DNA of 64,000 nt from a virus (Duplodnaviria > Caudoviricetes): IMG/VR virus record IMGVR_UViG_3300031994_000020. One strand, written 5' to 3'. A program made the position numbers and the translations under genes. A model generated the notes under the pieces. The model did no database searches, was not told the DNA's origin, and saw nothing but the letters and a program-made list of their open reading frames with translations. Shown here one piece after another: positions 10,727 to 64,000 of this stretch (within the stretch, counting starts at the first letter, position 1; each line of letters starts with the position of its first letter).

Positions 10727-10752
10727 TTAAAGGAGATACAAGGAGGGATAAT

Positions 10753-11337: not shown

Positions 11338-11340
11338 TTT

Positions 11341-12075: not shown

Positions 12076-12110
12076 CCAATTTAGCTAAATTTATTAAGGA
12101 GGAAAAAATA

Positions 12111-13328: not shown

Positions 13329-13342
13329 TTATAAAAAATATG

Positions 13343-13378
13343 ATGCGGGAGGCGGAAGTCTCCCGCATTTTTTGTTTA
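13343..13378 (+). terminator. Rho-independent terminator
   Basis: ATGCGGGAG/CTCCCGCAT stem plus TTTTTGTTT. Confidence 0.8.
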
Positions 13379-13398
13379 TATGAAAAGAGGTGAGATTC

Positions 13399-14553: not shown

Positions 14554-14578
14554 CATATTAAAAAAAATATGTTATAAT
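14550..14578 (+). promoter_or_regulatory. SigA-type promoter
   Basis: TTGACA-17 nt-TATAAT with extended TG. Confidence 0.8.
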
Positions 14579-14609
14579 ATAAAAAAGGAAATAAAAGGAG
14601 GATATTGCT

Positions 14610-15200: not shown

Positions 15201-15231
15201 TTTGAAGAAAACAATAGGAGGTATAAGGATT

Positions 15232-23705: not shown

Positions 23706-26700
23706 ATGGGTTTTACACAAGAGTTACAAGAAAGTATTATGTCAGCAATTCAAAGTGCTTCTAAAAAAGAAGTAATGAATTCTAATGCTACCTGTACATT
23801 ACAATGCGAAGTTGTCGAAGTAACAGATCCGGGTAAAAATGAGTATAAAGTAAAAATTCAGAATAATATTATTACTGCTTATGGAACTCCATCTGTGACT
23901 TATAAGCCCGGAAATTTAGTCTAGGTATTATTCCCAAATGGTAATGATTAGTCAGATCAAGACGCCATTATAGTAGGCGCAGTGACATATTCTACTGAAT
24001 TATATACAGAGAATGGTAATGATAGTTATATTAATATAAGTGAAAATTTAATAAATGGTTTGAATGAAATTGATTTATACACTTATAATTCAAGTGAACA
24101 ATCAATAGAATTAACAAATGATAATTTTGGAAGTATATTTCTTGATTACTTAAAAGATTATCAAGTATGGAAATTATCTGCTAATATAAAAACAGATATT
24201 CAACCTATGGATCAACGTGCGGCAGGTGATTATGGTATTATTTTAAAATTGCCTATTTTAAAAGACAATGGTAATAATAATTTAAGCCATGATTAGTTTG
24301 ATATAAAAATAAATGTAGATAATATTCAAGGAGATCCTTATAATTTATCTTCATATACAAATCAAGAAATTTATGTAGAGGTTCCCGCGGATTTAGTGTA
24401 GGATCCAACAGATGAAAATGGTAATAAGAGATATCCTATTTTTACTGCTTTTGTTACAGGGTTCGCTCAAAGCCCTCAAAGTGATAAAAAAGATATATTT
24501 TTAAAAGATTTTTCTTTTCAAGCGGTAGATGCTTATACAGAAAAAGTAAAATCTGGCTACTATCTTACTATTGTTTCAGATACTGGAAGATATTATGTAG
24601 GCTCCGAAGAGACAAAAACTCTTAGACCTGTTTTAAAAGTTAATGGAAAAAATAAAAAATTAAATGATTATGATTGCTATTGGTTTAGAGAAAATACTAC
24701 GATTACTCCAGGAAATAGTAAATATTCTAGTTATGGAAAAAGTGGTTAGGAGTGTTTAAATGATTATAACTCTCTTGGAGAGAATGAAGATGGAACAGAA
24801 TCTATTCAGTAGGTAACTGATAATTATGAATATAGTGTACCACAAGATAGTATATACACTTCTATGAAATTTAAATGCGTTTTAGTTGATAAAGAGGGCG
24901 CAGCAGTTGCAGAAGGATATATTGTTTTAACTAATAAATCAACAGATAGTGTTGAGTTTAATTTAAAAACTACAACAGGTTTTACTTCTTATACTAAGAA
25001 TGTAGGTAATGTATCTTTAGTAGCAAGTATTAAACCTAATAATATAATTGTTAATGATTTAATATCTACTACATAGCAAAGATTTGATAAAAATGGTAAT
25101 GCTATAGATACCGATTTTTATAATGTTGTAAGAAGTAATGATAAAAATGAAGATTAGATTGAATTTGAAATAAATTTTCCTTGTTCTTTTATAAATGAAT
25201 AGAATACTATAAAGTGTTCTTTTTAGAGAGAATTTACTAAAAGTACAGGAGAAGTTAAAAAAGAGCTTATTGGAAGTTCAGAAATTCTTATTAATACTCA
25301 AGGTAATTACACTTACAGAGTGGTGATAGAAAATGGTAATTATTTATATAAGTATGATGGTAACGGTAATTCTCCTTTTGTAGCAGATTATAGTGGCCCT
25401 GTCTCTTCTCGTGTTAAAACCATACCTACTTTAAGTTAGAAAATATATAAAGCGGATGGTACTGAATTAACAGAAGATGAATATAAATATTGTAAATGCA
25501 CATAGGTGGCTCCCGCAAATAGACAAGAGTAGAAAACTACTACCATGTTTGATTTTTATGATAATGATAAACAAAATGAAAGAGAAGGTTACTATCATAT
25601 AAATAAAAATCAACTTGATTATAAAATTGCTAACCGTTATAATGATAAAACTTTTGTTAATGATATTACTTTAGTTATTGAATATAATGGAGCTACAATA
25701 GAAGAAACTACTGATATAAGATTTCTAAAAGAAGGCGAGTCTGGTACTAATGGTTCTAAATATACAGGACTTATATTATAGAATGGTTGTACTTATGGAG
25801 AATATGAAGGTTATCTCCATAAATTTCAATTAATTTATAATAATGGAGCAGATCCGGGTTAGTATTGGGTAAATAGAGCTAATGAAGAAGGATCCATTGA
25901 AAAATTTATAGAAACTGAATTTACTGTTCAGATTTATTGCAATGGAGAATCTATTAATGATGATGATAATAATAATAGTCATATACAAAATATAACTTAG
26001 TCTCTTTTTAATGAGCGTCAAGCCAATCCTATGATTGAAATTGATAATAATGGTAAAGTAACTATTAAAGAAGGCACGACTTAGGATGGCATAAAAGACA
26101 CAATAAATATTATTCAAGCGAAAGTTGAAGTAGGACCTTCCGCAGGAGGAATTTCAAATCCGCAAGAAGTACTTTACATTTATTATCCTATTGAAATAAG
26201 TTATATTACTAGCAAATTATATAATAAATCTATTCCAAACATAGGTGGAGGATTTGATAAAGTTTTATATGCTTCTAATGATGGAACGAATCCTCAATAT
26301 AACAATGTTGATTATTTTGAATATATTAATAATATAGATGATGAAGAATATAATTCTTATAATTCATATACTTAGGATGTAATAGGAAATTTAGAATTTA
26401 AAAACTTTTATCCAACCCCTACTGAAGATGATCCTAAAAAAGTAGATGAGTCAAGAATAAAAGTTGATGCTTTGACTACAAAAGAGTCTGCTTTTGATTT
26501 TAATTATGTGAAAGTAACAATGACTAATAAGCAAACAATTGAAAATATAAGAACTAAAATAGATAATACTCAAGGACAAATTAATGATAATAAAGATATA
26601 GAAACAAAAATTTCTACTATTGAAACTAATATTATAAATTTAAAAAATTATTGGTTAAATATTAAAGATAATAATATAGAAAATTCTTTAAGAAGTAGTA

Positions 26701-29138
26701 AAGAATTTGTTAATACAAGGACTAATATGTTAAATGCTTTAAATGATGCTTTAACAGATTTATATACTTTTAATGAAGAATTTAAAAAGATTTTTCCTTC
26801 TGGTAATGAAAATATTTTTAATTATGAAGTAACCAAGGAAGAAATTGAAAATAAGAAAAATGAATTAAGAGTTTTAGGTAAAAAAGATACGCCTGCAGAG
26901 CGTCCTTTTATAAATAAATTAAACACTATTACATTTAATGCACAGCAAATTTCTAAAAAGATAGCTTATGATTTAAATATGTTAATAGATGCTTATAATG
27001 AAGATATTGAAAGATTTAATGATAATTGTAATATTTTTAATGACTTTAATGTTAAAGCAAGTTATTATGGGTAGAAAAATTTTAAGGGCGGAATGTATGA
27101 ATATTGTAATAATAATTCATAGTCAGATTCTCTTAAAGAAAGACCTGAGTACTTAAAATTACAAAATACATTAAATCAATTATTATTAAATTTGAGTAAC
27201 GATAATGATGAAGCTTTAATTTATACTTATTCAGATATTAAAGATAAAGTTTTTGATGAATTTGATAAGTTAATAGAACAATACATGGATACTCCTGCTT
27301 TAGCCCCTATTGATAAAGAAAAAAGTGATTTAGAAGAAGCAAATGTAGCTTTAAATTCTGAATTAAATTCTTATAAAAAAGAACTTGATATTGCAGAGCA
27401 TAGCTCTTCAGTTGTTCATTTAAAACCTATTATAGTTACAATGAATACTCATTCAATGAGTTATTTAAATGATTAGGATGGTAATAAATTATATACTGGA
27501 GGAGATGATGGTGAATACTTATTTGCTCCTCAAGTAGGCGCTGGTAAGAAAGAAAGTGACGGATCTTTTACAGGAATAACTATTGGTGTTAAAGCAACTG
27601 ATAAGAGTCCTAATGAAAAACAAATTGGTTTATTTGGTTTATCTAAAGGTGAGCAAAGCATCTTTTTGAGTGCGGAAGATGGACATGCTGAATTTGGTAA
27701 ATCTGGTTCAGGTCAAATAAAAATATTACCTAATGATCCAACAAATGAAATGGCTGCTATTATTGAAGGTGGTAATTATTCTACTTCTAAAAAAGAAGGT
27801 ATGCAAATAGATTTATCAAAGCCAACAATTAAGTTTGGTAGTGGTAATTTTGAAGTTAGTAAAGAAGGTTGGATAAAAGCTAAAGGCGGTGGGTCAATAG
27901 CTGATTAGACTATTGGAGATAATATTTTAAGTAGTGCAGGTGTGGAGCTTAACTCTTCAGAAAGTTCTGTATAGGTTAAATCTGCGAGAGGGAAAATATA
28001 TTCTGGTTCTCATAACGCTATAGATAATCCTAGTGTTGGCTTTTAGTTATCTAATAATGGATTATCAATTGGTTCTAAATTTAAAGCAACTGATACCGGA
28101 ACCGTTTAGGTTGGAACTGGTGCTTATAATGCTTCTTCTGAAACCGCGACTGATAATAAATGTTAGGCTATTAATGGAAATACAGATGGCTCTTATATTG
28201 GTTTTAAAACAAATAAAGCATATTTTAAACGTGATGAGCATAATGTTTTAATAGGAATTGATACTAACTCTGCAACAGGACATGCTAACTCAGGAGAGGT
28301 ATATATTGGTACTGATGGTTTTAGATTAGGCACTAATTTTGCTGTTGATTCTAATGGTGATTTATTTGGTTCTAGTGTTACTGTTACAGCCGGTCACATT
28401 GGAGATTAGAGTATTAGTAATGGAGAAATAGTAGGTGAGACTTCAAGCGGAGGCGGAACAATAACTTTAAATGCAAAAGGTTCCATAATAGCTAAAAAAG
28501 GAAAAACTACTAAATAGATAATTGATAGAGATGGTTCAGTTACTTTTACAAACGGAACTATTGCAGGGTAGACTTTAAATGAAGCATCTGGAAACATTTC
28601 TGCTAGTTTGACTGCAGGAAATATGACTTTAAGATCAGATGGCTATATCGGGGGAGGTTCCGATTATGCTTAGTATATTGATAATAAAGGTAATGCTTCT
28701 TTTAATAAAATTACTGCAAATGGAATTTTTTCAGGTTCAGCAGATGGAACTTTTTCAGGTTCAGCATCTGGTACTTTTTCAGGCTCAGCAACTGGAACTT
28801 TAACTGGAAATGGAACGAATCCTTTAGGAGGAACTTGTGTTGATCAAATAAAATCTTTATCAGTAGGACAATTAACAGCTCAAGGAGTTTTGGTTGGCGC
28901 TGCTGGAAGTACACACGCTATTACAATGAAAAATGGAAAAATATCAGCAGATAGTATTGATGTTGATAGTATCATAGCGGCCATTGGTAAATTAGAATAT
29001 CTTGAAGTAAGAGGTTTACGAGTAGGATCAACATCATCTACAGGAAGTTTTTATTTTAATGGTTATAATGTATCTAGAAGTGAAAAGGCATCTACTAGTT
29101 ATACTCATGTACTTTCAACACTAGCGAGTCCAGGATAA
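23706..29138 (+). CDS. Large tail tip/central fibre protein (about 1810 aa; about 29 TAG)
   Basis: 8 fragments in one frame. Coiled-coil segment, then C-terminal beta-helix-like repeats (GSIAD[TAG]TI, GHIGD[TAG]SI, GTIAG[TAG]TL). Confidence 0.75.
28722..28800 (+). repeat. 24-bp coding tandem repeat (GxFSGSAx, 3 copies)
   Basis: TTTTCAGGYTCAGCA recurs every 24 nt. Confidence 0.7.
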
Positions 29139-38665: not shown

Positions 38666-41002
38666 ATGCCAGACATTGTAAAAAGAATTAGTCTTAAAAA
38701 TAATCAAGGCGATTACACTAATTATGATATTGGTGCGGATGCTAACAATGTTAGTCTTGTTGAACCAATCAATATTGGTGGCAATATATATAATGATGCA
38801 GAATCTGCATTAAATGCTTTAAATAATAATAACAGCGATGTTGTAATTAAAGATTTTATATCTAAAACCTAGACTGGTCTTACTAGCTTTGATGGTAAAT
38901 ATGTATGGACTGATGGAAATGATATTTATTATTCAAATAATTATCAGCAGTATAAATTAAATAAAAATACCGGTGAATGGACTGAAGTTACTTGGGGCGG
39001 TTTAGCAAGTAATATTCAATTAGATGGTCAATATATATGGTCAGATGGAGAAGATACCTATTATTCAAGAAGCCTTACGGGACATCAATATAAATTAAAT
39101 AAGACTTCTGGAGATTAGGAAACAGCTACTTAGCAAGGAAAATCATTATTCAATGGAATAAATGTATGGACAGATGGAAATCAATATTATCTTTCATATA
39201 ATTCAGATCAATATGTATTGGATAAAACAACAACTCCATATACTTGGGTTGCAGTTACTTAGTCTACACCCGATGGAACATTTGGTGGGAATGGCTATTT
39301 TACGTAGTCAGACGGAAATAATACTTATTATTCTAGTGATAATACTCAATATGTTTTAGATAAAATAAATCCTTATACATAGACACAAATGACATAGACT
39401 GGATTAACTTCCTTTATTGGTTCTAATGTTTGGACTTCTAATGAAGGAGATATTTATCTTTCTGAAGGAACTAAACAATATGTTTTAAATAAAGAAACTT
39501 ATAATTGGTCTCCCGTATCATGGTCTATTCAATTAGTTGATCAAACTAATTTTAAGGGAGAACATATTTAGACTGATGGAAGTGATGTTTATTTCTCTTA
39601 TGGTTCAGAACATTTTATTTTTGACAATAGAAAAATAACAGAAGCTGGTGTACCAAATGGATTAGCTACATTAGATTCAAATGGTAAATTAAATAATACA
39701 CAAATTCCTAGTGGAGCAATGGTTAAGGGTATTGATTATGTTACCGCTGGACAAAAAGCTAACACTACTTTAGGAAATGGAGCTACTGCGGAAGGTCAGA
39801 ATACTACAGCAAGCGGACCTTATTCTCATGCTGAAGGGCAGAATACTACAGCAAGTGGACCATTAGCTCATGCAGAAGGACAAAGCACTGTTGCAAAAGA
39901 AGTAAATGCTCATACAGAAGGTAATGGAACAACAGCTTCTAATGCAAATACTCATGCAGAAGGACTTTCAACAATTGCTTCTGGCCCTAATGCACATGCG
40001 GAAGGTAGTGGCACTGTTGCAAGAGAAGCAAATACACATGCTGAAGGTAATAGTACAACAGCTTCTAACGCAAATGCTCATGCAGAAGGATATTTAACAA
40101 TTGCTTCTAATGCAAATGCACATGCGGAAGGTAATGGTACAACAGCTGCTCATACAAATGCTCATGCAGAAGGTTTTAAAACTGTAACTGGTAATGCTAA
40201 TCAGCATGTAGGCGGAAGATGGAATATAGGTAGAAATAATACTTTATTTGAAATTGGTAATGGTACAGCAAATAATGCAAGATCAAATGCTTTTGAAGTA
40301 TATGAAGATGGAAATATATTTGTTGCAGGAAATGTTGCTAATAATAGGAAAGAAACATTTGTAACTAATAGAGGAATACTTAATTCTTCTTTTGTTATTT
40401 CAGATGATTTTAAAAATAATAGTATTTATTCTTATTTTAGTAATTCTACTGAAAATATAAATATATATATTAATGGTGCTAAATATTTTGGTATTAAAAC
40501 ATCAAATAATGTTTATTTATATACAGGACAAGTTAGTACTGGATATAATGGAATATATGTAAGAGTATTTAATGAAAGCACAGGATTATTAATACATCAA
40601 GGATATTATAATGATGCATCTTTAACTACCACTTTAGAATTAACAGGGAATATTAATTATACATTTTATTTCTATGATATGAATAATGCTCCTTGGGATG
40701 AACATATTATTTATAAAGAATATTGGTTTGGAAGTGGATCACAAGCTGCCGGTCCAGCTGTTGAATGTTCGACATTAGATTCGCATACTTCACTATATTA
40801 TGGAGTAGTAGATGTTGGTATTCCTAATTATCGTTTAGTATCTGCTAATCTTACATCTTCTTGGACACCTACTCCTGATAAAATAACGCCTACACTTTTA
40901 TTAAGAGATTGGGATAAGATTAGGATTTTTGTGGGAGCGAGTCCAGAAACTCTTACTATGGGGTTAAGATGTTTATATCTTAAACGTGGAAGCGAAACAT
41001 AA
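38666..41002 (+). CDS. Tail fibre/receptor-binding protein 1 (778 aa; 8 TAG)
   Basis: N-terminal YDIGADA anchor, six approx. 42-aa Trp repeats, 14-aa HAEG (YadA-head-like) repeats, FEIGNGT neck. Confidence 0.8.
38870..39625 (+). repeat. Six Trp-rich coding repeats (WxxxxW...W[TS]DG..YYS..QY.L.K)
   Basis: Visible on translation; Trp columns use TGG (9) or TAG (8). Confidence 0.85.
39785..40175 (+). repeat. 42-bp coding repeats (AHAEGxxTxAS)
   Basis: About 10 tandem 14-aa units; a related array lies at 46945-47250. Confidence 0.85.
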
Positions 41003-52720: not shown

Positions 52721-52758
52721 AAGGACGTAGATTATTTATCTACGTCCTTTTTCTTTTT
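52721..52758. terminator. Terminator between the convergent late and early arms
   Basis: AAGGACGTAGAT/ATCTACGTCCTT stem with A- and T-rich flanks. Confidence 0.8.
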
Positions 52759-53779
52759 ATAAATTTAATATAAAATCTCTGAAACTTTGAGTTTCAACGA
52801 AACTACAACATCCTATTTGACTTCCCATTTTTACTCTATTGTATCTATCTGGCATACCATATATATATTTAATAATATCCCAATCATTTAATCTGAGTTC
52901 TTCTATAATCTTTCTTTTTAATGACTTTAAAGCATCATAGCTTTCAACTAATGTATCATTAGCACCAAGTCTCCATAAGCTAGCTTGATAATAAAAATAT
53001 CCATGAAGTAAAGTCATCATAATTTGATGGAGTCCAAAATTCTTAAGATTTTGGTCATCATTATTTAAATACATATCAAAGAAAGGATAGCTTGCCCCCA
53101 TAAGAAAATCTCCAAGATATGTGTCTATGTAAAAATTTTTTTCATTAAAATAAGACCTTGATAAAGACTCTGGATTGTGAACCCATTTATAAGTATAAAT
53201 AGGAACATAAGCATAATCTTCTCCTATTGATATTAAAGAAGCTAAGTTACACGAGTTAAAGAAAACATCTTCATGTGACATTAAATCTTCTTTAAAATAA
53301 CAATGAAATTTATTTAATGTATTTTCTACATTAAAATATTTTCCATGGAGCCAAGTATCTGTTTCATCGCCATGAAATTCTCTTCCATAGGTTTGTGTAT
53401 CATAAAAGAATTCTCTAAATTCTGTGCATAATGTGTATTCTATACCATCTTCTTGTATTATTTTAAATACTGTCTTAAAAGCATTTGGTTCAAACATATC
53501 ATCATTGTCTATAAAAGTAAGCCATTCTCCGTGTACATAAGGGAGTGCGGCCTGCCGCGTATTTCCTGGACAATGTACCTCCCGCGTTGTTTCACAATAT
53601 ACAATATTCATTTTATCTTCAAATGTTTTTACCACATTAAGAAAATTATCAGTTGATTTATCATCACAAATAATAACTTCATAATCATCTTTATGAAGTC
53701 CATTATCTAATACGGATTGTAACAATCTACCTATTGTTTTTTCACAATTATAACATGGTACAACGATTGATAATTTCAT
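52757..53779 (-). CDS. Glycosyltransferase family 2
   Basis: SIVVPCYN, ICDDKSTD, FIDNDD, HEDVFF. Confidence 0.9.
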   Translation of the reverse strand: MKLSIVVPCYNCEKTIGRLLQSVLDNGLHKDDYEVIICDDKSTDNFLNVVKTFEDKMNIVYCETTREVHCPGNTRQAALPYVHGEWLTFIDNDDMFEPNAFKTVFKIIQEDGIEYTLCTEFREFFYDTQTYGREFHGDETDTWLHGKYFNVENTLNKFHCYFKEDLMSHEDVFFNSCNLASLISIGEDYAYVPIYTYKWVHNPESLSRSYFNEKNFYIDTYLGDFLMGASYPFFDMYLNNDDQNLKNFGLHQIMMTLLHGYFYYQASLWRLGANDTLVESYDALKSLKRKIIEELRLNDWDIIKYIYGMPDRYNRVKMGSQIGCCSFVETQSFRDFILNL

Positions 53780-53800
53780 CCTTTTATCTCCTTAAAAGAA

Positions 53801-53830
53801 AAGCCCTGATATTTTTATATCAGGGCTATT
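53801..53830 (-). terminator. Terminator after the dUTPase gene
   Basis: AGCCCTGAT/ATCAGGGCT stem with T tract on the - strand. Confidence 0.65.
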
Positions 53831-53832
53831 TT

Positions 53833-54276
53833 TTATTTTATTCCAGTACTTCCAAAACCGCCCTCGCCGCGCTCTGTACTATCAAGTTCATCAACTTCAT
53901 TAAATGAAACTTTAGGACATTCCATTATAATAAGCTGCGCGATTCTAGTTCCTGCGGGAATTATCTGCTCTATATCTGTATCATTATGTATTGCTACAAC
54001 TACAGGACCTCGATAATCTGCGTCTATAACTCCAACACAGTTCGCAGGTCTAAGTCCCTGCTTTGTAGCGAGTCCACTTCTCGCAAAGATAGCTCCAAAA
54101 TAACCATCTGGAATCGCCATTGAAAGTCCCGTATCAATTTTTACGGTTGCGCCAGGAGGAAGCTCTATATCATAGTTTGTGGCTGCATAGAGGTCGGCGC
54201 CCGCAGAAAAAGCAGTACCAAAAGTAGGCATTTTAGCAAGATTGTTTAATTTCTTAATATCTATATTTATTACCAT
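53833..54276 (-). CDS. dut: Trimeric dUTPase
   Basis: AGADL, RSGLA, GVIDADYRG, RIAQL, RGEGGFGSTG. Confidence 0.95.
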   Translation of the reverse strand: MVINIDIKKLNNLAKMPTFGTAFSAGADLYAATNYDIELPPGATVKIDTGLSMAIPDGYFGAIFARSGLATKQGLRPANCVGVIDADYRGPVVVAIHNDTDIEQIIPAGTRIAQLIIMECPKVSFNEVDELDSTERGEGGFGSTGIK

Positions 54277-54278
54277 AA

Positions 54279-54602
54279 TTAAAATTCCACTCCTTCATCA
54301 TCGTCATCGTCTATATCATCATCTGTTGTTTCTTTTACTATTGGCTCAGGGAAATATCCTGGATCAACATTATAACTAACAGAAGCAGTACAATCAGGCT
54401 CTTTTTCAGAAGTGAAATCTTCAGTAAGGGTAACTCTATACCATTCATCTTCTATTTCACCTTTTACCTTTTTACATTTGTATTCTGAGCTGTACTTTGA
54501 TAATGTAAAATTACGGTCTCTTTTAGCTTCTTCTATAAGCTGCTTAGCTTCTTCCTCATTAGGAACTCTATAAGTAAGAACACTTCTTATAAGATATTTC
54601 AT
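54279..54602 (-). CDS. Hypothetical protein
   Basis: Intact ORF with RBS. Confidence 0.65.
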   Translation of the reverse strand: MKYLIRSVLTYRVPNEEEAKQLIEEAKRDRNFTLSKYSSEYKCKKVKGEIEDEWYRVTLTEDFTSEKEPDCTASVSYNVDPGYFPEPIVKETTDDDIDDDDDEGVEF

Positions 54603-54621
54603 CCTTTTTATCTCCTTTTTA

Positions 54622-54876
54622 TTATATCATTTCAACAGTAATAGGAAAATCATTAAATTCTGTACTTCTATTAAGTTCTCTTTGAACTTTATCTCCTATT
54701 GCTTCCCAACCTTTAATTTTAAGAATAGGAGTGTCATTTTGTCTACATAAGGCATAACATACATGTTCTATATCACTTAAAGCACAGTCTATTTCTTGAA
54801 TACATCTTTCATTATCATAAACGCATACTTTTTGTTTTAATACAAAAGGACTTATAACTGCTACGACTTGTTTCAT
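54622..54876 (-). CDS. Hypothetical protein
   Basis: Intact ORF with RBS. Confidence 0.65.
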   Translation of the reverse strand: MKQVVAVISPFVLKQKVCVYDNERCIQEIDCALSDIEHVCYALCRQNDTPILKIKGWEAIGDKVQRELNRSTEFNDFPITVEMI

Positions 54877-54888
54877 ATTTTTTTCCTC

Positions 54889-55266
54889 TTATGCTGATAT
54901 AATACCATGAGTATAGTCAAAAAGATAATATACAAAACATTCTTTAGTATCAGGATCTTTTATCCAAATCTCATAATTGCCATCTTCTAATAATTCTATG
55001 TCAATAATCTCTCCTCTGTTTTGTAAAGTAGGTCTTAATTCTTTTACAATACCATCAAGAGTGAGAGGAATAAAAATTGTATAATCTCTTCTTTCATGGC
55101 ATAATAGCATCCAATATGTCTTTTTATTATTAGTTGCTTCTTCCTAAATATGTTTTCCCATATCATAGGATTTTATATTAAATGTTATAGTTTCAAGCGG
55201 AGCTTCTTGACTCATAGCTTGTTTGTTTATAGAATATAAAGTTATATCTGTATTTAATTCTGCCAT
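54889..55266 (-). CDS. Hypothetical protein (125 aa; one TAG at 55146-55144)
   Basis: MAELNTDITLYSINKQ..KHI[TAG]EEA..YWMLLCHERRDYT; the start lies just downstream of a promoter and an RBS-like sequence. Confidence 0.7.
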
Positions 55267-55301
55267 ATTAAAAAACCTTTCCCTTAATTTTATCTATATA
55301 T

Positions 55302-55330
55302 ATTATAGCATATTTTTTATACTAAGTCAA
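55302..55330 (-). promoter_or_regulatory. SigA-type promoter
   Basis: TTGACT-17 nt-TATAAT with extended TG. Confidence 0.75.
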
Positions 55331-57606
55331 GTTATATATCCACGTAATTTTTTACTATGTTTATATCTATCTTCAACTTCGTGTTGCTTACCTATATTAA
55401 ATGCAGACTTATAATCTCCGGTAAGGTATCCCGTGACTCGTCTAAGTCTCTGAATATTAGAGCTGCCACAAGCAGGACAGGAATCATTAATTAATCCAGT
55501 ATAACCACAATCTGCACACATATCATTCGGTACATTTAAAGCAAAATAGGGTATATCTTTATCCATGGCATAATTAACAAGAGTTTCCATAGCTTTGAGA
55601 TTTTGAATTACCGCGCCTTCAAGCTCCACGTAAGTGATGCATCCCGCACTACTATATCCTGTTAATTGAGACTCAATGTCTATCTTTTCTATTGGTGATA
55701 TTTCTTTCCAAACAGGAACATGCATACTGTTAGTAAAATATTCTCTATCACTTACATTAGGTATCTTACCATATTTTTTGCGGAATTTTTCTAAAGCAGT
55801 GTGGCAAAGATTTTCTGCGGGAGTGTAATACACTCCGAAGTTAAGTTTATATTCTTCTTTAAACTCAGCACAGCGATCTTTAAATAACTGCTCTATCTTC
55901 TTTGCTAATTCCATTCCTTTTGTTTCAGTATGGTCACATCCCACCAGAATTTGTAAGCACTCAGCTAAGCCTAACTGTCCTATAGCAAGAGTTCCGTGCT
56001 TAAGTGCTGATCTAATGCCTTCTTCAGGCACATATCCTGCCATAGTTCCATTCTCATACATGAATTTAGCTGATGCGGGATCTTGATTACATATATATTC
56101 AAAACGCTCAATGAGCATATCTTTTGCATCATTTATTGCATCATCAAGAAGTTTCATAAAATCATCTATTATATTATAAGATGATTCCCAAAACATTAAT
56201 TTATTACCATTTTTATCATATGCATACTCTTTATGATCTGTAAATAATGCTTCCATTGCTATTGTTGGAAGAATAATTGTAACTGGACAGATATTTCCAC
56301 GTCCATCTTTGAGCTGACCGAACCCGTTTATATCCCAACCATTCGCAGTTCTACAACCCATGGTGCTAAAGTATGTGCGCGGATCATCTGGATCGTATCC
56401 CGCATTACCGCTCCAATCGCAATTCGCATAATTAGGATAAAGACGCTTAGCAGTAGATTCAAGTGCCAATTGATAAAGGTCGTAATTCGGATCTCCAGGT
56501 TTGCGATTTACTCCTTTCATCATTTGGAATATACCACAAGGGAATATAGGAGTTTTATGAAATTTACCTACTCCTTTAATGCTACCTCTAAGAAGCGCTT
56601 CTGTAACCATGCGACCCTCAGGAAGAGTACATGTTCCATAATTGATCGAGGTAAAGGGGAGCTGATTCCCGCTTCGTGATTGTAAGGTGTTAAGATTGTG
56701 ATACATACCCTCGACTGCTTGCTGCGTTTCTTTGATTGTCATATCCATAGCATATTGATATGCTTTTTCAAATGTTTTATAACCTTTATCGTCAATCGGG
56801 GTTTCTGAAGTAAACACACCTTCATATTTATCAGTATTTATTTCTAAAATATATTTACAACCATCTTTCCAATGTTTATAAAAACTTTTTCTTACATATG
56901 GAACCATTGTCCAATCTAGATGAGTCGCAGAAACGCCTCCAAATTGCTGCAGAGACTGGAGCTGAAAGATTACAGCGACTAACTGAAAAGCAGTATTAAT
57001 ACTATTTGCGGGGCGTACATCTGTCTGCCGCGTATTAAACCCTTTTGCAAGTAAATCATCAAAAGGTACACTAAGGCAATTATGCATACCAATAGCATAG
57101 CTATCGAGATCATGAATATAGATCTCATTATTCACATGTCTAGCTTTTGATTTCTCTGACATGCAGTTATCAAGAGCAAACTCTTTCATAAGCACTGCAT
57201 CAGCTTCGCCTTTTCGACCACCAAAACTATGTTCATCAACATTTGCATTCTGGTTCTGTACATTACTAGCCTGGAGCTTTTCTTTAATAACCGACATCAT
57301 ATGGCTATTCCATTTGCGCTGTTTATCGCGGTCATGGCGATATTCAATGTATGCGGTGGCCACGTCGCGTCTTTTCGTTGACATAAGACCATGTTCTACT
57401 AATGATTGTATATCATCAATAGTTAATTCATTTGGTTGCCCTTCCATATATCCTTCAATATAGTTTGCTATATTTTGGGCTTTTTCTTCTGCGTATGGAG
57501 TTATTTTTCCATCAACCGCAATAAATGCTTTAAGAACAGCATTCTTAATTTTTTCTGAATTAAATGGTTCTCTAATACCATCACGTTTTATTATAAATAA
57601 ATCCAT
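55327..57606 (-). CDS. nrdD: Anaerobic (class III) ribonucleoside-triphosphate reductase
   Basis: ATP cone, IYIHDLD, MGCRT, TPAENL, CxxC..CPxC, RVTGYL glycyl-radical motif. Confidence 0.95.
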   Translation of the reverse strand: MDLFIIKRDGIREPFNSEKIKNAVLKAFIAVDGKITPYAEEKAQNIANYIEGYMEGQPNELTIDDIQSLVEHGLMSTKRRDVATAYIEYRHDRDKQRKWNSHMMSVIKEKLQASNVQNQNANVDEHSFGGRKGEADAVLMKEFALDNCMSEKSKARHVNNEIYIHDLDSYAIGMHNCLSVPFDDLLAKGFNTRQTDVRPANSINTAFQLVAVIFQLQSLQQFGGVSATHLDWTMVPYVRKSFYKHWKDGCKYILEINTDKYEGVFTSETPIDDKGYKTFEKAYQYAMDMTIKETQQAVEGMYHNLNTLQSRSGNQLPFTSINYGTCTLPEGRMVTEALLRGSIKGVGKFHKTPIFPCGIFQMMKGVNRKPGDPNYDLYQLALESTAKRLYPNYANCDWSGNAGYDPDDPRTYFSTMGCRTANGWDINGFGQLKDGRGNICPVTIILPTIAMEALFTDHKEYAYDKNGNKLMFWESSYNIIDDFMKLLDDAINDAKDMLIERFEYICNQDPASAKFMYENGTMAGYVPEEGIRSALKHGTLAIGQLGLAECLQILVGCDHTETKGMELAKKIEQLFKDRCAEFKEEYKLNFGVYYTPAENLCHTALEKFRKKYGKIPNVSDREYFTNSMHVPVWKEISPIEKIDIESQLTGYSSAGCITYVELEGAVIQNLKAMETLVNYAMDKDIPYFALNVPNDMCADCGYTGLINDSCPACGSSNIQRLRRVTGYLTGDYKSAFNIGKQHEVEDRYKHSKKLRGYIT

Positions 57607-57675
57607 TGGTATTTACCTCCCTAATTATTATTATTTTAAGGTTTGTAAATATATTTTACTTTTATACAAGATATA

Positions 57676-58179
57676 TTAATTAAATTCGCCCGTTGTATTA
57701 TAACTAGTACATGTTATCCCATAGTCTTTACCTGTATCCCATGGGGTAGTAATCAATGGACAAACAATAGGATCAGGATTAGAAGGAACTGTAATTATAT
57801 GCGCGGGAGCTGTAAGACTCGACTCTTCTTTAAGCTCTTTATATTTATTTAAATACCAATCAGATTTCTTTAAATCTTCTTCACCATTTTTATCTGCCGC
57901 GCGATATCTGTATTTCCAAGCATTGCAAAGGCAGAAGTTCTGAACTGCTTCCTTACCAAATACTAAAATCATTTCGTCTATACATTCCATCCCGCCTTCA
58001 CGATTATAATGCTTAGGATGGTTTACATTTTCTTTAGCCAATTTTTTATTCTCCTTTGGTATTTCTGTTTTTAACATTTCTAATGTATCATTAAACTTTT
58101 GTTTGTACTCTTCTGGCAACAATGTTATTTTCCAATCTGGATCATCATCATCTATAAAATTTACAGTATTAGTATTCAT
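57676..58179 (-). CDS. DUF3310 (SaV-like) protein
   Basis: NVNHPKHY..ECID..NAWKY.YR..KNGEEDLKK..WY. Confidence 0.8.
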   Translation of the reverse strand: MNTNTVNFIDDDDPDWKITLLPEEYKQKFNDTLEMLKTEIPKENKKLAKENVNHPKHYNREGGMECIDEMILVFGKEAVQNFCLCNAWKYRYRAADKNGEEDLKKSDWYLNKYKELKEESSLTAPAHIITVPSNPDPIVCPLITTPWDTGKDYGITCTSYNTTGEFN

Positions 58180-58234
58180 ATTACTCTCCTTGTGCGGCGA
58201 CCCAGCTCAGTGCATCACTGAGCTGGCTTCCCGC

Positions 58235-61200
58235 TTATTCATCATAATCTTCTTCCAATGCGCCGGTAGCTGTAACTCTCTCATGTTGAAGTTTAATTTC
58301 ATCTCCAACTATATCAATTATTTTATAAAGTTGATGAGTCATTGTTGCTTGATAAGTCTTACCGACAAACTGATCATCGCGTCTGTATCCAGTAACCATT
58401 AACATTGTACCTCTTTTAAACCAGCTCTTTTCCAAAACCTTTTTAGTTCCATCAGGTTGTACTTGACTTACTTGACGTTTAAACATTGCATAATAATCTT
58501 TAGTAAATTTAACCGCTACTACACCAGATGTTGTTAAAAGAGATACTATATGATGATTATCATCCTTTGCTATTACAGTTCCTGCAATTCTATATAATTT
58601 ATAAATAGGAATCTGTACGCCACCTCTTTTTATAAAATAATCTACTTCATTAGATTTTAATTCATTAAAATCTGCTAAATCATATTTTTTATTATCAATA
58701 TTTATTAATTCATGCGGTCCATGGTAGAAACATAGTGAGTCCATTTCCCAGTGGGACTGGGTCCCCGCCGCATATTTTTCCCATGTTTCCATAAACAGCA
58801 TATCATTTAACTTCATTAATGTTTCATTTTGATTTTCTTTAAGCCATTCTCTTGCTTTATCCATAATTAACTGATACTTATTATCCCAAACTTTACAAGG
58901 AATGAACATATTTCCATTTTCATCAAAAGAAATCTCATCTATCATTTCAGTTAAATGCTTTTCTAAAAATTTGTATCCTACATCATTTATTACATAATTT
59001 GTAAGATTTCTTTTACTTATTGCTTTAAGATATTTATTAAAGTTAAAAACTCTAATTTGTAATTCTAATTCTTTAGGAATTAAATTATGTTGTACTAATC
59101 CATTAAAATTCTGCAAAGTTAATTTTTTCTTAGGCTCGCATACTTTAGATATATAATATGCCATTATTTCTTTTCTACTATGCAATATTTCTTCTACCTC
59201 ATCAAAAGCACCAGCTTTGATTAAATTAAACATTGCTGTCTTTGTTAAAGGACATCTTATCATAAAATCTTTAATTCCTTTATATGGTCTCCCGCCCTTT
59301 ATCTTTTCTATTGTTTCTGTGTTTATATTGCTTAATGCTTTAAGACCATACAATATACGATTATTCTCAATATCTGGTTTAAATCCATAATCAGACTCAT
59401 TTATATTTACAAGAGATACATTAATGCCTTTTGAAGTTATATCTCCAATAGCCTTTGCTAATTTTGCATAATCTGTACCTTTTTCTTTTTTCTCTACATC
59501 AAAATCGTCTTCTTCTTCAAGACTGCCGCTATTTACTATCAAACATGCAGTATCCCAATATATAGGATCCCAATGAGTTGCAAGATATGCGGTCTGATAC
59601 CCAATGAATGAGTATGCAAGTGCATGAATCACACTAAAAGAGTAACCCATCTGAGGACCAATTCCGCAGTTCCAAATATATTTTCCAAGTACGGGAGATG
59701 TTGCTTGTTCCAATACTTGTTTCTTTAATTCAGGGATTTTATTCATTTGCTTTTTACCGACTATTTTTCTTGCGGTATTGGCATCTTTTAATGTAAATCC
59801 ACATATATTTGGATCCATTAACATTTTCATCATTTGCTCTTGGCTTGGTGGAACGCCATAAGAAGATAAAAAGTAAGGTTCAATAACTTTCATTTCTTCT
59901 TTTGTCAAACCTGCTAAAGACATTTCACTATACCATAAACTAATGTTATTCTTAAATCTTATATACTTCTCCATAGGAGTTTCAGCACCTTTTTCTGAAG
60001 TCATAAGACGCATCAAACCATTGGCATCCGCTAATTCTAACATAGTTCCTGGTTTAATTTTCTTTGCCGCCTGACTACCTATATCACTATCAAATTGAAA
60101 GATATTCAAAATATTTCCTTCTTGAATATTTGTCCATACATCTTTATCTTCAATATCTAATACATCTGGATGGAAATATTTATTATAAACTTCTCTTAAA
60201 GATAAATTATCTTCTATTTCACCATTCTCTTGTAAAAACTTTATACACTGTGTTATCTTATCTTGTACTTCAGTTAAGAGAAAATCATATTTTGTCATTC
60301 CCGCAGCTTCAGCCATGTGCAGATCATACTGAGTTATTATATCCCCACTCGGTGTCTTCATAAAACAACCAAACTCATATGGATCTTCATCAAACATAAT
60401 TACACCTGATGCGTGACTTCCGCGACGGCTAATAAGTCCTTCAATACCTTGCATTATTTCCAATAATCCAGGATATTGATTCACCTCATAAATGAACATT
60501 TGAACAGGCTCTCTACCTTTTTCTTTATTTCCATTTATGACTTCATCAAGACTCCAAAGAAAACCTCTTTCACTTGGTACTAAACTTGATAAATACTGTG
60601 CTATATCATTATCAATTCCATTAGGATATTCTTCACTTCTATATCCGCGGCAAGCGGTTTGAATCGTAGATTTTGTTGTTTCAGTTCCAAAAGTTGCTAC
60701 AAGAGTACATCCTAAATTTTTACGAGATATATCATCTATATCTTCTTTAAAATTCTTTCCACGCTCTTCTTTTATTTTTTGAATGATAAGCGGGCGCTTT
60801 GATGGACACAAATCTAAGTCAATATCGCCAAGCTCGGTTCTGTCTTTATTAAGATAACGCCAGAATGGTAAGTCCCACTTTATAGGATCCAACTGAGTAA
60901 TCCCAAGAAGATAATGATTCAGACCAGAGCAACTTGAGCCACGTCCCGCACCTACCATACTTCCGCATTCCCAAAACATATCAATATAATGTTGAAGCGT
61001 GATAGGATAAGAAAACATATTAGTTCCCAATTTCTCACCTATTGTTTTCTTTATATCAGCTTCTTCTTCAAGTCGAGAAAGATATTCATCTGTTCCAAGA
61101 TTCTTTTCTCTTAATTTTTCAATACATTTGTTTACCCAATATCTTTCATATATATCATCAGAATCAAACATACTATTTAATATTGGATAATCATTATGTG

Positions 61201-62191
61201 CTGGATCTCCTTCACGTCCTGCTATCATTCCTTTATGTTTTGGATAATTTTCCACTTCAACACTAGGAATAACTTGTGCATGAGTCAAATCATAAAATTT
61301 TATTTTATCATAAATCTCCATACTATTCTTGCACATTTTTTCATATAAATCAACAATAGAAGGAGTTAAATTCTTTTTAATATCTTCTTCATCCTGAAGA
61401 TAAGCATATTCATAAAAATCATCAACTTCTCGTTCTCCACCCTTACTATTAAGGTATGCTTTATGAACATATCTATCTTCTTTTGTAAGATAATGAGCAT
61501 CTGAGCCAATTACCATTTTAACGCCAAAAACAACAGATAACTCTGCTATCTTTTTATTTACTATTATTTGTTCGCGGGAGGCACCTGGTGCTACTTCAAA
61601 ATAAAAGTCATCACCAAAAACTTCTTTACACCAAAGTACAAAATTTATTATCTGCTGCTTTTTCTGTAAAGAAGTTTCATTATTTCTATCGCCCATCTTC
61701 CGCGCTAATTCCATCTCAAGAACACAGGAACTTAATTCACCACCTATACATGCGGTTGTCGCTATTAAATGACCAGGATTCTTGTTTATTATTCTTTCAA
61801 GATCAGACTTTAATGTAGGTACTCTTTCAAGTCCTCTATCATAATAAGAATTCATCCAAGCTAAAGAAGATAACTCTCTTAACTGACGGTGCCCTTCGCG
61901 ATCTCTAGCTATTAAAATAAAATGAAAATATTTTTGACCAGTTTCTCTCGTATCTGTCAAATATATTTCATTTCCTAATGCTATTTTAAATTCTGGATTC
62001 TCTTCTCTTATTTTCTTTGCTAATATATTTACTTCTATAGAACTAGCTAAACATTCATGATCTGTAATACTAATTCCCGCAAGACCTATATCAATTGCTC
62101 TTTGAATCAGCTTCTCGGGACGATTGATGCTATCGAGAAGTCTTATATTACTATAATGGCTGTGAGAATGGACTTCAAACCGATTAGACAT
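58235..62191 (-). CDS. dnaE: DNA polymerase III alpha subunit (C family)
   Basis: PHP domain (HSHSHYS, ITDHE, SDAHY), GRGS, DIDLD, HASG, KYDFL, YSFSVIH. About 17 Trp, all TGG. Confidence 0.95.
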   Translation of the reverse strand: MSNRFEVHSHSHYSNIRLLDSINRPEKLIQRAIDIGLAGISITDHECLASSIEVNILAKKIREENPEFKIALGNEIYLTDTRETGQKYFHFILIARDREGHRQLRELSSLAWMNSYYDRGLERVPTLKSDLERIINKNPGHLIATTACIGGELSSCVLEMELARKMGDRNNETSLQKKQQIINFVLWCKEVFGDDFYFEVAPGASREQIIVNKKIAELSVVFGVKMVIGSDAHYLTKEDRYVHKAYLNSKGGEREVDDFYEYAYLQDEEDIKKNLTPSIVDLYEKMCKNSMEIYDKIKFYDLTHAQVIPSVEVENYPKHKGMIAGREGDPAHNDYPILNSMFDSDDIYERYWVNKCIEKLREKNLGTDEYLSRLEEEADIKKTIGEKLGTNMFSYPITLQHYIDMFWECGSMVGAGRGSSCSGLNHYLLGITQLDPIKWDLPFWRYLNKDRTELGDIDLDLCPSKRPLIIQKIKEERGKNFKEDIDDISRKNLGCTLVATFGTETTKSTIQTACRGYRSEEYPNGIDNDIAQYLSSLVPSERGFLWSLDEVINGNKEKGREPVQMFIYEVNQYPGLLEIMQGIEGLISRRGSHASGVIMFDEDPYEFGCFMKTPSGDIITQYDLHMAEAAGMTKYDFLLTEVQDKITQCIKFLQENGEIEDNLSLREVYNKYFHPDVLDIEDKDVWTNIQEGNILNIFQFDSDIGSQAAKKIKPGTMLELADANGLMRLMTSEKGAETPMEKYIRFKNNISLWYSEMSLAGLTKEEMKVIEPYFLSSYGVPPSQEQMMKMLMDPNICGFTLKDANTARKIVGKKQMNKIPELKKQVLEQATSPVLGKYIWNCGIGPQMGYSFSVIHALAYSFIGYQTAYLATHWDPIYWDTACLIVNSGSLEEEDDFDVEKKEKGTDYAKLAKAIGDITSKGINVSLVNINESDYGFKPDIENNRILYGLKALSNINTETIEKIKGGRPYKGIKDFMIRCPLTKTAMFNLIKAGAFDEVEEILHSRKEIMAYYISKVCEPKKKLTLQNFNGLVQHNLIPKELELQIRVFNFNKYLKAISKRNLTNYVINDVGYKFLEKHLTEMIDEISFDENGNMFIPCKVWDNKYQLIMDKAREWLKENQNETLMKLNDMLFMETWEKYAAGTQSHWEMDSLCFYHGPHELINIDNKKYDLADFNELKSNEVDYFIKRGGVQIPIYKLYRIAGTVIAKDDNHHIVSLLTTSGVVAVKFTKDYYAMFKRQVSQVQPDGTKKVLEKSWFKRGTMLMVTGYRRDDQFVGKTYQATMTHQLYKIIDIVGDEIKLQHERVTATGALEEDYDE

Positions 62192-62223
62192 ATTTTCACC
62201 TCATAATTTTATTTACTATATAT

Positions 62224-62252
62224 ATTATATCATATTTTTTAATAAAAGTCAA
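62224..62252 (-). promoter_or_regulatory. SigA-type promoter for the polymerase gene
   Basis: TTGACT-17 nt-TATAAT with extended TG. Confidence 0.75.
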
Positions 62253-62264
62253 GCGAAAGATTAT

Positions 62265-62732
62265 TCACCTTCCGCTTATGGGATATTCTAATTCTTTACA
62301 ATTAAAAAATTCTTGCAATGCCCATCTCTCACTGCAAAGATTATTTGGTGTTTCATATATCATAAGAACAATAGTAGGTTCTTCATCATCAAAAGGTCTA
62401 GCAAATTTATTAGCGCAATATTCAAATGCTTTTAAAGTTTTTTCTTTATTTACCAATTTATCGAGTAGCTGTCTATATTCAACCATAGTAGGACAGTAAG
62501 GAGCATTAATTTTACTTTCACATGGACAAATATGAGTTCCATATCGTTGAACTATAAGTGGCTCATACCGAAGCCCGCATACTATTCCTCTTTTGTCTAT
62601 ATAATATTCTTTTCCTTGCGGTGGTCGGTACCAGGCTGGATCAGAGACACAAACTGAAACAGGTATGAGATTAGGAGTGAAATTCCGAATCTGATAGAAA
62701 TAGCTGGTCTTTATTTTTATCATTATATTCAT
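62265..62732 (-). CDS. Hypothetical protein
   Basis: Intact ORF. Confidence 0.6.
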   Translation of the reverse strand: MNIMIKIKTSYFYQIRNFTPNLIPVSVCVSDPAWYRPPQGKEYYIDKRGIVCGLRYEPLIVQRYGTHICPCESKINAPYCPTMVEYRQLLDKLVNKEKTLKAFEYCANKFARPFDDEEPTIVLMIYETPNNLCSERWALQEFFNCKELEYPISGR

Positions 62733-62835
62733 TTATCACTTTCTTTAAAATTTTTTCTGATATCATTTGATAATTTCTTTTATTAAACCAATAGTATTCG
62801 GTCTGTCTTCTACTGGTTCAAAAATAGAGGTTATT

Positions 62836-63105
62836 TCAATTTTCTTCAAGTAATTCCTCCCAATGATAATCTCCGCAATCTTCAATTCTCCAATCATCTA
62901 CAATAATATCACTACATTCTTTAATATCTTCCTTATAACCATCAAGTCGATCAGTTTCTTCATCGGTTAATTCTTCATCATTAACTTCTTTTCTTAAAAG
63001 AGTTTTAAAATCTTTTTCTTCTTCTTCTGTAAAATTAATTTCTCCTTCTCTATGCCCATAACGAAGATATCCACGAATATAATCCATATACATAAAAATT
63101 TTCAT
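62836..63105 (-). CDS. Acidic hypothetical protein
   Basis: Intact ORF; ATGA overlap. Confidence 0.65.
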   Translation of the reverse strand: MKIFMYMDYIRGYLRYGHREGEINFTEEEEKDFKTLLRKEVNDEELTDEETDRLDGYKEDIKECSDIIVDDWRIEDCGDYHWEELLEEN

Positions 63106-63326
63106 ATTATTGTCTCCTCTGTATCTATAGCTGCTTGTATATCTAAACTGTCTCCAGAATCAATATCTTCTATTTCACAAAAAGGTTTATATTCAAATAA
63201 TTGATTTTTAAATTTGAACACTGTTTTACTTTTTCCAAAATCCCCTCCCCATTCAGAACCACTTAAAAAAATTTTTAATTTAGTTCCATCAGGAAGTTCT
63301 TTTATTCTTTCTCTTGTTATTCTCAT
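63102..63326 (-). CDS. Hypothetical protein
   Basis: GAGG RBS before MRITRERIK. Confidence 0.6.
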   Translation of the reverse strand: MRITRERIKELPDGTKLKIFLSGSEWGGDFGKSKTVFKFKNQLFEYKPFCEIEDIDSGDSLDIQAAIDTEETII

Positions 63327-63327
63327 T

Positions 63328-63552
63328 TTAATTACCTCTTTTCTTCCAAGGGTTAACACTTTGCTGGCAGTATTCATGTAGATATTCTAACATTTTATCT
63401 TCCTCGGGGAAGAAAAGATCTATCTGCTTTGTTGCTGCAAGCCAACCAAAAAAGTTTGACATTAACTGACCAAATCTCAAATCTGGAAATGATTCTTTGT
63501 GTACTTTACATAATGTTGCATAAAAATCGTCTAATCTATTAGGATCTCTCAC
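63328..63552 (-). CDS. Conserved phage hypothetical protein (MRDPNR..PDLRFGQL)
   Basis: Recognisable small phage protein pattern. Confidence 0.7.
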   Translation of the reverse strand: MRDPNRLDDFYATLCKVHKESFPDLRFGQLMSNFFGWLAATKQIDLFFPEEDKMLEYLHEYCQQSVNPWKKRGN

Positions 63553-63725
63553 TCTTCCATCTCCTTTACTTCAACTATTTCATATTTAACTCCAGGCTCA
63601 TTTGAACTATATACTTTAATACCTTCGTCTATTTCAGTTAAAAAAATATATGCAGTTAGTAATATTCCAAATAATGTCCCTACTAAAAAGATTACTATTG
63701 ATAATATAATTGATTCTATAGCCAT
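63549..63725 (-). CDS. Small membrane protein (58 aa)
   Basis: MAIESIILSIVIFLVGTLFGILLTAYIFL; GAGGTG RBS; GTGA overlap. Confidence 0.55.
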   Translation of the reverse strand: MAIESIILSIVIFLVGTLFGILLTAYIFLTEIDEGIKVYSSNEPGVKYEIVEVKEMEE

Positions 63726-63735
63726 TTTATTTTCT

Positions 63736-63999
63736 TCACCTCATTAGAACTAGCTTCTGTGATGCTCTAGTCGCAGCTGTGTATAACCATCGTTTATGTT
63801 CTTCTTTATCAAACGGGAATGATTCTTCTAGTACCAAAACCTTATCCCACTCAGAGCCTTGAGCTGCGTGGCATGTTAACGCGTACCCATATGTAATTTG
63901 TCTAGGTAATATATCTCCAATTTTATTTATTAATCTACCTATTTGATAAGATACTCTCCAATCTACACAAGGTTTTTCCTCTAATAAGAAATCTTTATC
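63736..63999 (-). CDS. SF1B (RecD/Dda-like) helicase C-terminus, truncated by the window edge
   Basis: YGYALTCHAAQGSEWDKV..RWLYTAATRA (motifs V and VI). Confidence 0.85.
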   Translation of the reverse strand, partial: DKDFLLEEKPCVDWRVSYQIGRLINKIGDILPRQITYGYALTCHAAQGSEWDKVLVLEESFPFDKEEHKRWLYTAATRASQKLVLMR

Positions 64000-64000
64000 A

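Follow-up and report, generated by a model that had tools for sequence, protein, structure and literature searches.

The stretch of DNA considered here (the window, 64,000 nucleotides) belongs to a tailed phage (Duplodnaviria; Caudoviricetes) and is the reverse strand of bases 55212-119211 in one 146,105-bp IMG/VR record, IMGVR_UViG_3300031994_000020, which is linear and rated 93% complete. The subject is the codon TAG, how this phage reads it and in which genes it is placed. The plus strand of the window is devoted, up to position 52716, to morphogenesis (terminase, portal, virion structural protein, tape measure and tail proteins), and the minus strand, from 52757, encodes by Pfam match a GT2 glycosyltransferase, dUTPase, the anaerobic ribonucleotide reductase NrdD, a DUF3310 protein and DNA polymerase III (Pol III) alpha. 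The arms face each other across a bidirectional terminator hairpin (52721-52749); a search for such hairpins found 2 sites, against a shuffled expectation of 0.1. With SPbeta YorL, and with its counterparts in large Enterococcus siphophages, Pol III alpha shares about 40% identity, and the portal has 314 relatives in IMG/VR. The searched stretch is contained in full only in runs from sheep-gut metagenomes, which may be the source of the phage. Genes were called with TAG read through, and minus-arm counts cover open reading frames (ORFs) of at least 80 amino acids (aa) from 52757 onward. The genes on which the argument turns, and the hairpin between them, are as follows.

1183-2922, plus strand: terminase large subunit, 2 TAG (terminase and portal are covered by PHROGs phrog_2/phrog_2739)
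About 3402/3423-5042, plus strand: portal, 1 TAG; the ORF probably starts at 3402 or 3423, not 3357
15202-23595, plus strand: tape-measure-like protein, 2797 aa (PF10145); 22 TAG, 13 TGG
23706-29138, plus strand: tail gene, 1810 aa; 30 TAG, 5 TGG
38666-41002, plus strand: repeat protein with six repeats; 8 TAGs, at tryptophan (Trp) columns of its own repeats
52721-52749: bidirectional intrinsic terminator, a hairpin with a 12-bp stem and T-runs on either strand, flanked by the ends of a plus-strand ORF (52716) and of GT2 (52757)
52757-53779, minus strand: GT2 glycosyltransferase, last gene of the minus arm (PF00535, E=2.8e-24); 5 TGG, 0 TAG; TAA stop
53833-54276, minus strand: dUTPase (PF00692, E=1e-30); no Trp codons; TAA stop
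54889-55266, minus strand: small conserved ORF with the minus arm's sole real in-frame TAG (codon 41)
55327-57606, minus strand: NrdD (PF13597, E=2e-144); 7 TGG, 0 TAG; TGA stop
57676-58179, minus strand: DUF3310 protein (PF11753); 4 TGG, 0 TAG
58235-62191, minus strand: Pol III alpha, SPbeta YorL-like (PF07733, PF02811, PF17657); 17 TGG, 0 TAG; TAA stop
62265-64000, minus strand: further small ORFs (62265-62732, 62836-63105, 63102-63449 and 63736 onward); TGG only in likely coding parts; TGA stops

The meaning of TAG is indicated both within the phage and by its relatives. In the repeat protein, the T-W and V/I-W-[TS]-D-G columns are filled by TGG or TAG, and all 8 TAGs of the gene fall there. 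Window proteins with TAG masked as X were also aligned to 80 related phage loci and the opposite codons read: the partner was TGG in 574 of 791 codon pairs (72.6%), followed by TGA (41), TTT (40) and TAT (37), the TGA partners belonging to relatives in which TGA means Trp. In per-site alignments all three TAG sites of terminase and portal lie mainly opposite TGG, and the homologue of the 23706-29138 tail gene in two relatives described below, G001 and G002, carries TGA or TGG. As a control, TGG codons of the window show the same partner profile as its TAG codons. The glutamine (Gln) codons CAA and CAG are absent from the 12 commonest TAG partners, which speaks against the code 15 meaning, TAG to Gln. 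The TAGs of phAss-1, a 136-kb phage published as reading TAG as Gln (OQ749652; PMC10607447), fall opposite CAA/CAG in the identical procedure; the method therefore separates the two meanings.

Tryptophan content, with genes classed as early or late, is normal only if TAG is counted as Trp: as a share of all codons, TGG alone reaches 0.52% in late and 1.30% in early genes, and TAG and TGG together 1.27% and 1.57%, respectively. Across the whole genome ORFs stop at TAA (109 of 152) or TGA (43), and both remain stops, as in NCBI table 32. Repeats, codon alignments, control and Trp content thus agree, and by these comparisons TAG encodes tryptophan in this phage. This had been the reading of a first-pass annotation made from the DNA letters and their ORFs, and the alignments and internal repeats bear it out.

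TAG is distributed very unevenly. Plus-strand genes of the window hold 118 TAG and 82 TGG, against 3 and 42 in the minus arm (Fisher p=2.4e-11); genome-wide, morphogenesis genes hold 127 and 88, against 11 and 224 in replication and other minus-strand genes (p=2e-39); in the left 25 kb, the counts are 15 and 17 for plus-strand ORFs against 8 and 55 for minus-strand ORFs (p=7e-4). The split between early and late genes that the first-pass annotation proposed is upheld by the window and genome tests, and early genes elsewhere in the genome are not as TAG-rich as late ones. Its counts also held closely. About 40 minus-strand TGG became 42 (17 in Pol III alpha, 7 in NrdD and 5 in GT2, each with no TAG). 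The sole minus-arm TAG became three counted and one real, the other two, at codons 10 and 21 of ORF 63102-63449, both lying upstream of its likely start. About 29 TAG and 5 TGG in the 23706 tail gene became 30 and 5, and the minus-arm genes, said to avoid TAG as a stop, all end in TAA or TGA.

Beyond these counts, Pol III, NrdD, GT2, dUTPase, DnaB, RecJ, GyrA/B, PhoH and RNA ligase all have 0 TAG and stop at TAA or TGA. No ORF of the genome needs a TAG stop; in standard-code relatives 48 of 395 orthologous genes end in TAG. In early genes the A-ending member of the synonymous K/E/Q/L/R pairs has a share of 0.55-0.91, but TAG makes up only 0.05 of Trp codons, so these genes are actively kept free of TAG by selection rather than by composition. 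Late genes, where other A/G synonymous pairs are 73-94% A and the TAG share is 0.59, lie near the AT-driven expectation.

The boundary was first drawn between the two arms, and there it does not hold, since TAG-rich genes of three further classes lie on the replication strand outside the window, with TAG shares of 79-100%.

Minus strand: endolysin, holin-like gene and SleB-like hydrolase; 11 TAG, 3 TGG (against replication genes, p=5e-11)
Minus strand: HNH and GIY-YIG homing endonucleases; 12 TAG, 0 TGG
Replication strand, among the tRNA genes: DUF285 repeat protein; 13 TAG, 1 TGG

The endolysin and the holin-like gene, the latter encoding two hydrophobic segments, sit between gyrB and phoH. 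Pfam or PHROGs matches of the endolysin and of both homing endonucleases run across in-frame TAGs, and several TAGs of the lysis and endonuclease genes are opposite TGG or TGA in relatives. The dividing line for TAG is gene class, not arm.

The proposal that the phage itself switches on amber decoding gains support from a tRNA(CUA) of its own, one of 23 tRNA genes that the genome carries along with a transfer-messenger RNA (tmRNA). It is 93 nt long and lies at genome positions 10262-10354, outside the window (ARAGORN; Rfam tRNA model 54 bits). It begins 8 nt after tRNA-Trp(CCA), from which it derives as a paralogue: the T arms of the two are identical and the acceptor stems nearly so. A 21-nt insertion in its variable region forms a 5-bp stem and a 7-nt loop, GUCCAAA, that matches the Trp anticodon loop. 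Two relatives that read TGA as Trp, G002 and G003, have a homologous tRNA(UCA) with other stem sequences and the loop CUCCAAA, and a pattern scan added 47 such tRNA(UCA) from IMG/VR and, from metagenome contigs, two tRNA(CUA). That scan required the loop motif but not the surrounding hairpin; across 40 unique sequences, layers 2-5 of the stem are 95-100% paired, with 4-5 pair types each, against 18-68% pairing in slid controls. These tRNAs are located as follows.

Suppressor tRNAs with the extra arm (loop N-UCCAAA): genome 10262-10354; L131:2162-2257 (minus strand); L143:1501-1597 (minus strand); L144-L191; L192; L193

The extra arm, resembling a second anticodon arm, may let the tryptophanyl-tRNA synthetase (TrpRS) of the host charge tRNA(CUA); neither a release factor nor a TrpRS was found in the 93%-complete record. 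No ribozyme lies beside the suppressor tRNA, and an Rfam scan of the tRNA region gave only tRNAs and the tmRNA.

Several other RNA elements were seen along the way. Directly after the suppressor tRNA lies a 118-nt tRNA-like element (L082:10356-10473; Rfam tRNA 45.9 bits) with a large insertion containing ACAGCAA, which ARAGORN calls only with an intron. The tmRNA, outside the window at L082:18416-18763 (Rfam 80.8 bits), has the tag AKKIVSFPTKVALAA; G002 also carries a tmRNA, and such an additional tmRNA could be relevant should readthrough occur at the host's TAG stops. Other long-arm tRNA(CUA), in L087-L099 (IMG/VR contigs of 5-173 kb), have unrelated acceptor stems and the extra-arm motif CTCTGAAGG, which may form a loop, CUCUGAA, resembling the Gln (CUG) anticodon loop. 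The 144.6-kb contig L193 (JAEEGL013603757.1), which shares about 82% identity with this genome near the tmRNA, carries both an extra-arm tRNA(CUA) and a 71-nt tRNA(UCA).

There is a close correspondence between this phage and its relative G002 (IMGVR_UViG_3300028832_000101, 136 kb). The two share synteny, the early/late split, a recoded codon that is never a stop and a suppressor tRNA with an extra arm; G002 differs in recoding UGA instead of UAG and in using TAG freely as a stop. Its late genes hold 34 TGA and 69 TGG, against 5 and 74 in early genes (p=8e-6), no gene stops at TGA, 9 of 20 early genes end in TAG, and the extra arm of its tRNA(UCA) is again like a Trp anticodon arm. G002 is thus a mirror image of the layout described here. 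Where a family member reassigns a codon, that codon is purged from early genes as sense codon and as stop, and the other non-TAA stop is kept. G001 (IMGVR_UViG_3300028591_000112, L136-L142), complete at 131.6 kb with terminal repeats, has in-frame TGA in the early and the late arm alike (3 in Pol III), and no suppressor tRNA was found in it; it therefore behaves like a code 4 genome. Its Pol III alpha gene comes in two pieces with about 1 kb between them. In the portal tree the TAG = Trp phages (this phage, L009, L013 and L003) form a six-leaf clade with two standard-code contigs; L003, L009 and L013 are IMG/VR contigs of 10-13 kb without the early arm. The two standard-code sisters, L001 and L002, have no in-frame TAG, and their portal frame first stops at a TAG 2 codons past the aligned end. 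A further contig, L041 (IMGVR_UViG_3300035522_000076), has 3 in-frame TAGs, none at Trp columns, and may use another meaning for TAG.

These comparisons bear on a mosaic origin, in which arms from ancestors with different codes were recombined and the pattern is historical rather than selected. The arms are indeed separate, converging transcription units, and codes differ among close relatives. Yet the TAG-rich lysis, endonuclease and DUF285 genes are interspersed with TAG-free genes on the same strand, the two strands of the left region differ as well, the divergence from G001 and G002 is similar in the two arms (identity of 64-68% for Pol III and 59-61% for portal), and the independent TGA = Trp sibling G002 has the same split, all of which makes such an origin very improbable.

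Indirect evidence points to a host with the standard code. Because TGA is the stop in 43 of the 152 ORFs, the host is not a code 4 organism. Were the host itself to read TAG as Trp, with the phage merely matching it and the dearth of early TAG unrelated, the early TAG share would not be expected at 5% under AT pressure, nor the phage to carry its own tRNA(CUA). The sister lineage without in-frame TAG, whose portal frame stops at that codon, and the TAG stops in early genes of the sibling G002 also stand against a TAG = Trp host, and a screen of more than 250,000 genomes reported no bacterial UAG-to-Trp code (PMC8629427). Nothing speaks directly for this alternative, early genes being uninformative on the host's handling of TAG, and it can be given almost no credence.

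The explanation preferred here is one of dual decoding. In the bacterial host, most likely a member of the Bacillota with the standard code and TGA stops, TAG would not mean Trp, and the phage would supply an amber-reading tRNA, a paralogue of its own tRNA-Trp with anticodon CUA and an extra arm mimicking the Trp anticodon hairpin. Genes that work before or without this tRNA (DNA polymerase, NrdD, dUTPase, helicase, gyrase, RecJ, PhoH and RNA ligase) would be kept TAG-free, as sense codon and as stop, and so yield identical proteins under both modes of decoding. Where reliance on the tRNA is safe, AT pressure would have turned 60-100% of Trp codons into TAG, in the genes for tail, tape measure, terminase, portal, endolysin, holin-like protein, homing endonucleases and DUF285 protein, whose full-length products would appear only once the suppressor is charged and abundant. 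We infer the order of events and any selective advantage, such as delayed lysis. As a whole (an amber tRNA of the phage's own, TAG-free early genes and TAG-dependent late genes), the explanation is given a probability of about 0.7. A lysogeny switch was considered and rejected, as neither an integrase nor a resolvase was found in the 93%-complete record.

Transcription signals of the window and the genes around the head/tail region are needed to weigh this explanation.

3364-3392, plus strand: perfect sigma-A consensus promoter TTGACA-17-TG-TATAAT, extended -10, before the portal gene
14550-14578, plus strand: second perfect TTGACA-17-TG-TATAAT promoter, extended -10, before gene 14610
55330-55302, minus strand: sigma-A-like promoter TTGACT-17-TATAAT with TG, before ORF 54889-55266
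62224-62252, minus strand: near-consensus sigma-A-type promoter, extended -10, 11/12 matches plus TG, 33 nt upstream of Pol III alpha
6377-7114, 7134-8165, 8252-8857, 10753-11337, 11341-12075, 12111-13328 and 14610-15134, plus strand: seven TAG-free head/tail-region genes
8870-9487, 9740-10726 and 13390-14553, plus strand: the three TAG-containing ORFs within 6377-15134

A number of observations weigh against dual decoding or limit it. The classes early and late were assigned by gene function only. The replication arm had been called code-neutral, which stands for the purged replication and nucleotide genes; two genes of the replication strand each need one TAG read as sense, namely ORF 54889-55266, whose codon 41 lies in a stretch kept in relatives and aligns to ATT in G001 and G002, and an AAA_24 ATPase gene outside the window, whose one real TAG is opposite TGG in two relatives. 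In a few small ORFs TAG lies no more than 20 codons from the end, leaving room for a rare TAG stop. The dependence of late functions on TAG stands for tail, terminase, portal and lysis genes and fails for the seven head/tail-region genes, with 0 TAG and 14 TGG against 127 and 74 in other late genes (Fisher p=1.9e-6). Late genes show no shift of TAG towards the 5' end relative to TGG (p=0.49), and the placement of TAG looks random. Strong sigma-A-like promoters occur in both arms, and pieces of both recur at 100% identity among the metatranscriptome contigs of an independent sheep-gut RNA library, which establishes presence only. Finally, relatives in bacterial genomes amount to 24 contigs of metagenome-assembled genomes (MAGs), many of 100-160 kb and probably whole phages, binned to incompatible taxa (Bacilli, Erysipelotrichaceae, Clostridia, Methanobrevibacter, Treponema and Bacteroidales). 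These bins were rejected as evidence of the host, being mostly whole-phage contigs in scattered taxa.

The seven TAG-free genes suggest that TAG is decoded less efficiently than TGG. Sorting by efficiency or abundance would go further: the suppressor is present from the start, TAG is read poorly in competition with release factor 1 (RF1), and it is tolerated only in low-copy proteins. The contrast between these seven genes and other late genes is what such sorting predicts; their counterparts in G002 lack TGA, the genes rich in TAG encode low-copy proteins (tail fibre, tape measure, terminase, portal and homing endonucleases), and perfect sigma-A promoters, of which about 0.01 sites are expected by chance by our own base-composition estimate, precede late operons. 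However, TAG is absent from the dozens of Trp codons of Pol III alpha, RecJ and gyrase, replication enzymes that are not high-copy proteins, and sorting alone leaves the avoidance of TAG stops in early genes unexplained. As a replacement for dual decoding it is unlikely; it can act alongside a timing constraint.

How far the dual-decoding split serves to time expression is a separate matter. Because sigma-A-like promoters stand in both arms, promoter type does not separate them, which leaves room for translation via TAG to delay portal, terminase, tail and lysis proteins. A designed gate is not backed, since TAG is placed like TGG, in position (as above) and in order, the first Trp codon being TAG in 19 of 24 genes against 16.8 expected; nothing therefore favours such a gate over permitted drift. 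Gating is plausible as a consequence of the split and is not demonstrated as an adaptation. Bolder, and put forward only tentatively as somewhat more apt to be wrong than right, is the view that the split is a working translational clock with an interchangeable codon, in which suppressor build-up, not transcription, would set the appearance of portal, terminase, tail and lysis proteins, and TrpRS would recognise the decoy CCA arm. If so, charging would be independent of the real anticodon and the family could move the design between UGA (G002, G003 and the 47 other IMG/VR tRNAs) and UAG (this phage and the two metagenome contigs), which would account for the occurrence here of a TAG-to-Trp code that the phage surveys consulted do not report.

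Stop-codon recoding confined to part of the gene set has precedents. Code 15 (TAG to Gln) and code 4 (TGA to Trp) occur in crAss-like, Lak, Jade and Agate phages, the only two reassignments seen in phages whose code differs from that of the host, a restriction ascribed to the acceptance of suppressor tRNAs by some host synthetases and not others (Borges et al. preprint, 10.1101/2021.08.26.457843). The present phage shares with them recoded stops in structural and lysis genes, early genes readable in the standard code and a phage suppressor tRNA, and the role proposed for them, timing of late genes and lysis, is the one considered here. Thus the layout is that proposed for code 15 phages, as the first-pass annotation had it, and equally that of code 4 phages. 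It differs in that TAG means Trp, and in that no phage release factor or TrpRS was found, unlike in Jade phages. Block-wise dual coding has also been described with Mgcod (10.1101/2022.06.29.495998), and in a 2025 screen 28 of 29 phage tRNA(CUA) tested inserted Gln and 1 alanine. phAss-1, the second-best GenBank phage match to the portal (37% identity), belongs to the same broad lineage, is of similar size, and has many tRNAs, including a tRNA(CUA), and TAG in terminase, portal, tape measure and tail genes; its TAGs face CAA/CAG, whereas those of this phage face TGG.

In the full-text literature searched, coverage of which is incomplete, no description was found of a phage TAG-to-Trp code or of a second anticodon-like arm. 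The design is thus a known one for dual-coded phages, here with a codon meaning, TAG to Trp, undescribed for phages in that literature.

Outside phages, NCBI translation table 32 is the plastid code of the Balanophoraceae, with TAG to Trp in an AT-rich genome. UAG-to-Trp in organelles of holoparasitic plants is mentioned in one paper. Table 32 differs in being an organelle-wide plastid code with no two decoding states and no virus, in a lineage unrelated to this phage.

The same early/late architecture with TAG to Trp means that the architecture is independent of one codon-amino-acid pair, and a comparison of this phage with G002 and G001 serves as a natural experiment, in which the effect of a phage-borne code change on codon use can be followed one gene at a time. 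In practice, a gene caller limited to tables 11, 4 and 15 will break genes up or translate them wrongly at about 200 Trp positions of this phage. Concrete predictions for proteomics and time courses follow from the endolysin, holin-like and homing endonuclease genes, gated by TAG, and from the head/tail-region genes that lack it.

Two of the TAG-free head/tail-region genes have PHROGs matches: 12111-13328 to phrog_2729, a virion structural protein, and 7134-8165 to phrog_4088, of unknown function. The phage also encodes a full-length homologue of the flagellar cap protein FliD (L083:2527-3900, minus strand, outside the window), without TAG and on the strand opposite to its neighbours; it was not found in five of the MAGs that hold relatives, and the best FliD match among 400 genomes of the class of one such MAG was 45% identical. 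A Ro60-like DUF2828/DUF7788 protein is encoded at L083:969-2480, outside the window.

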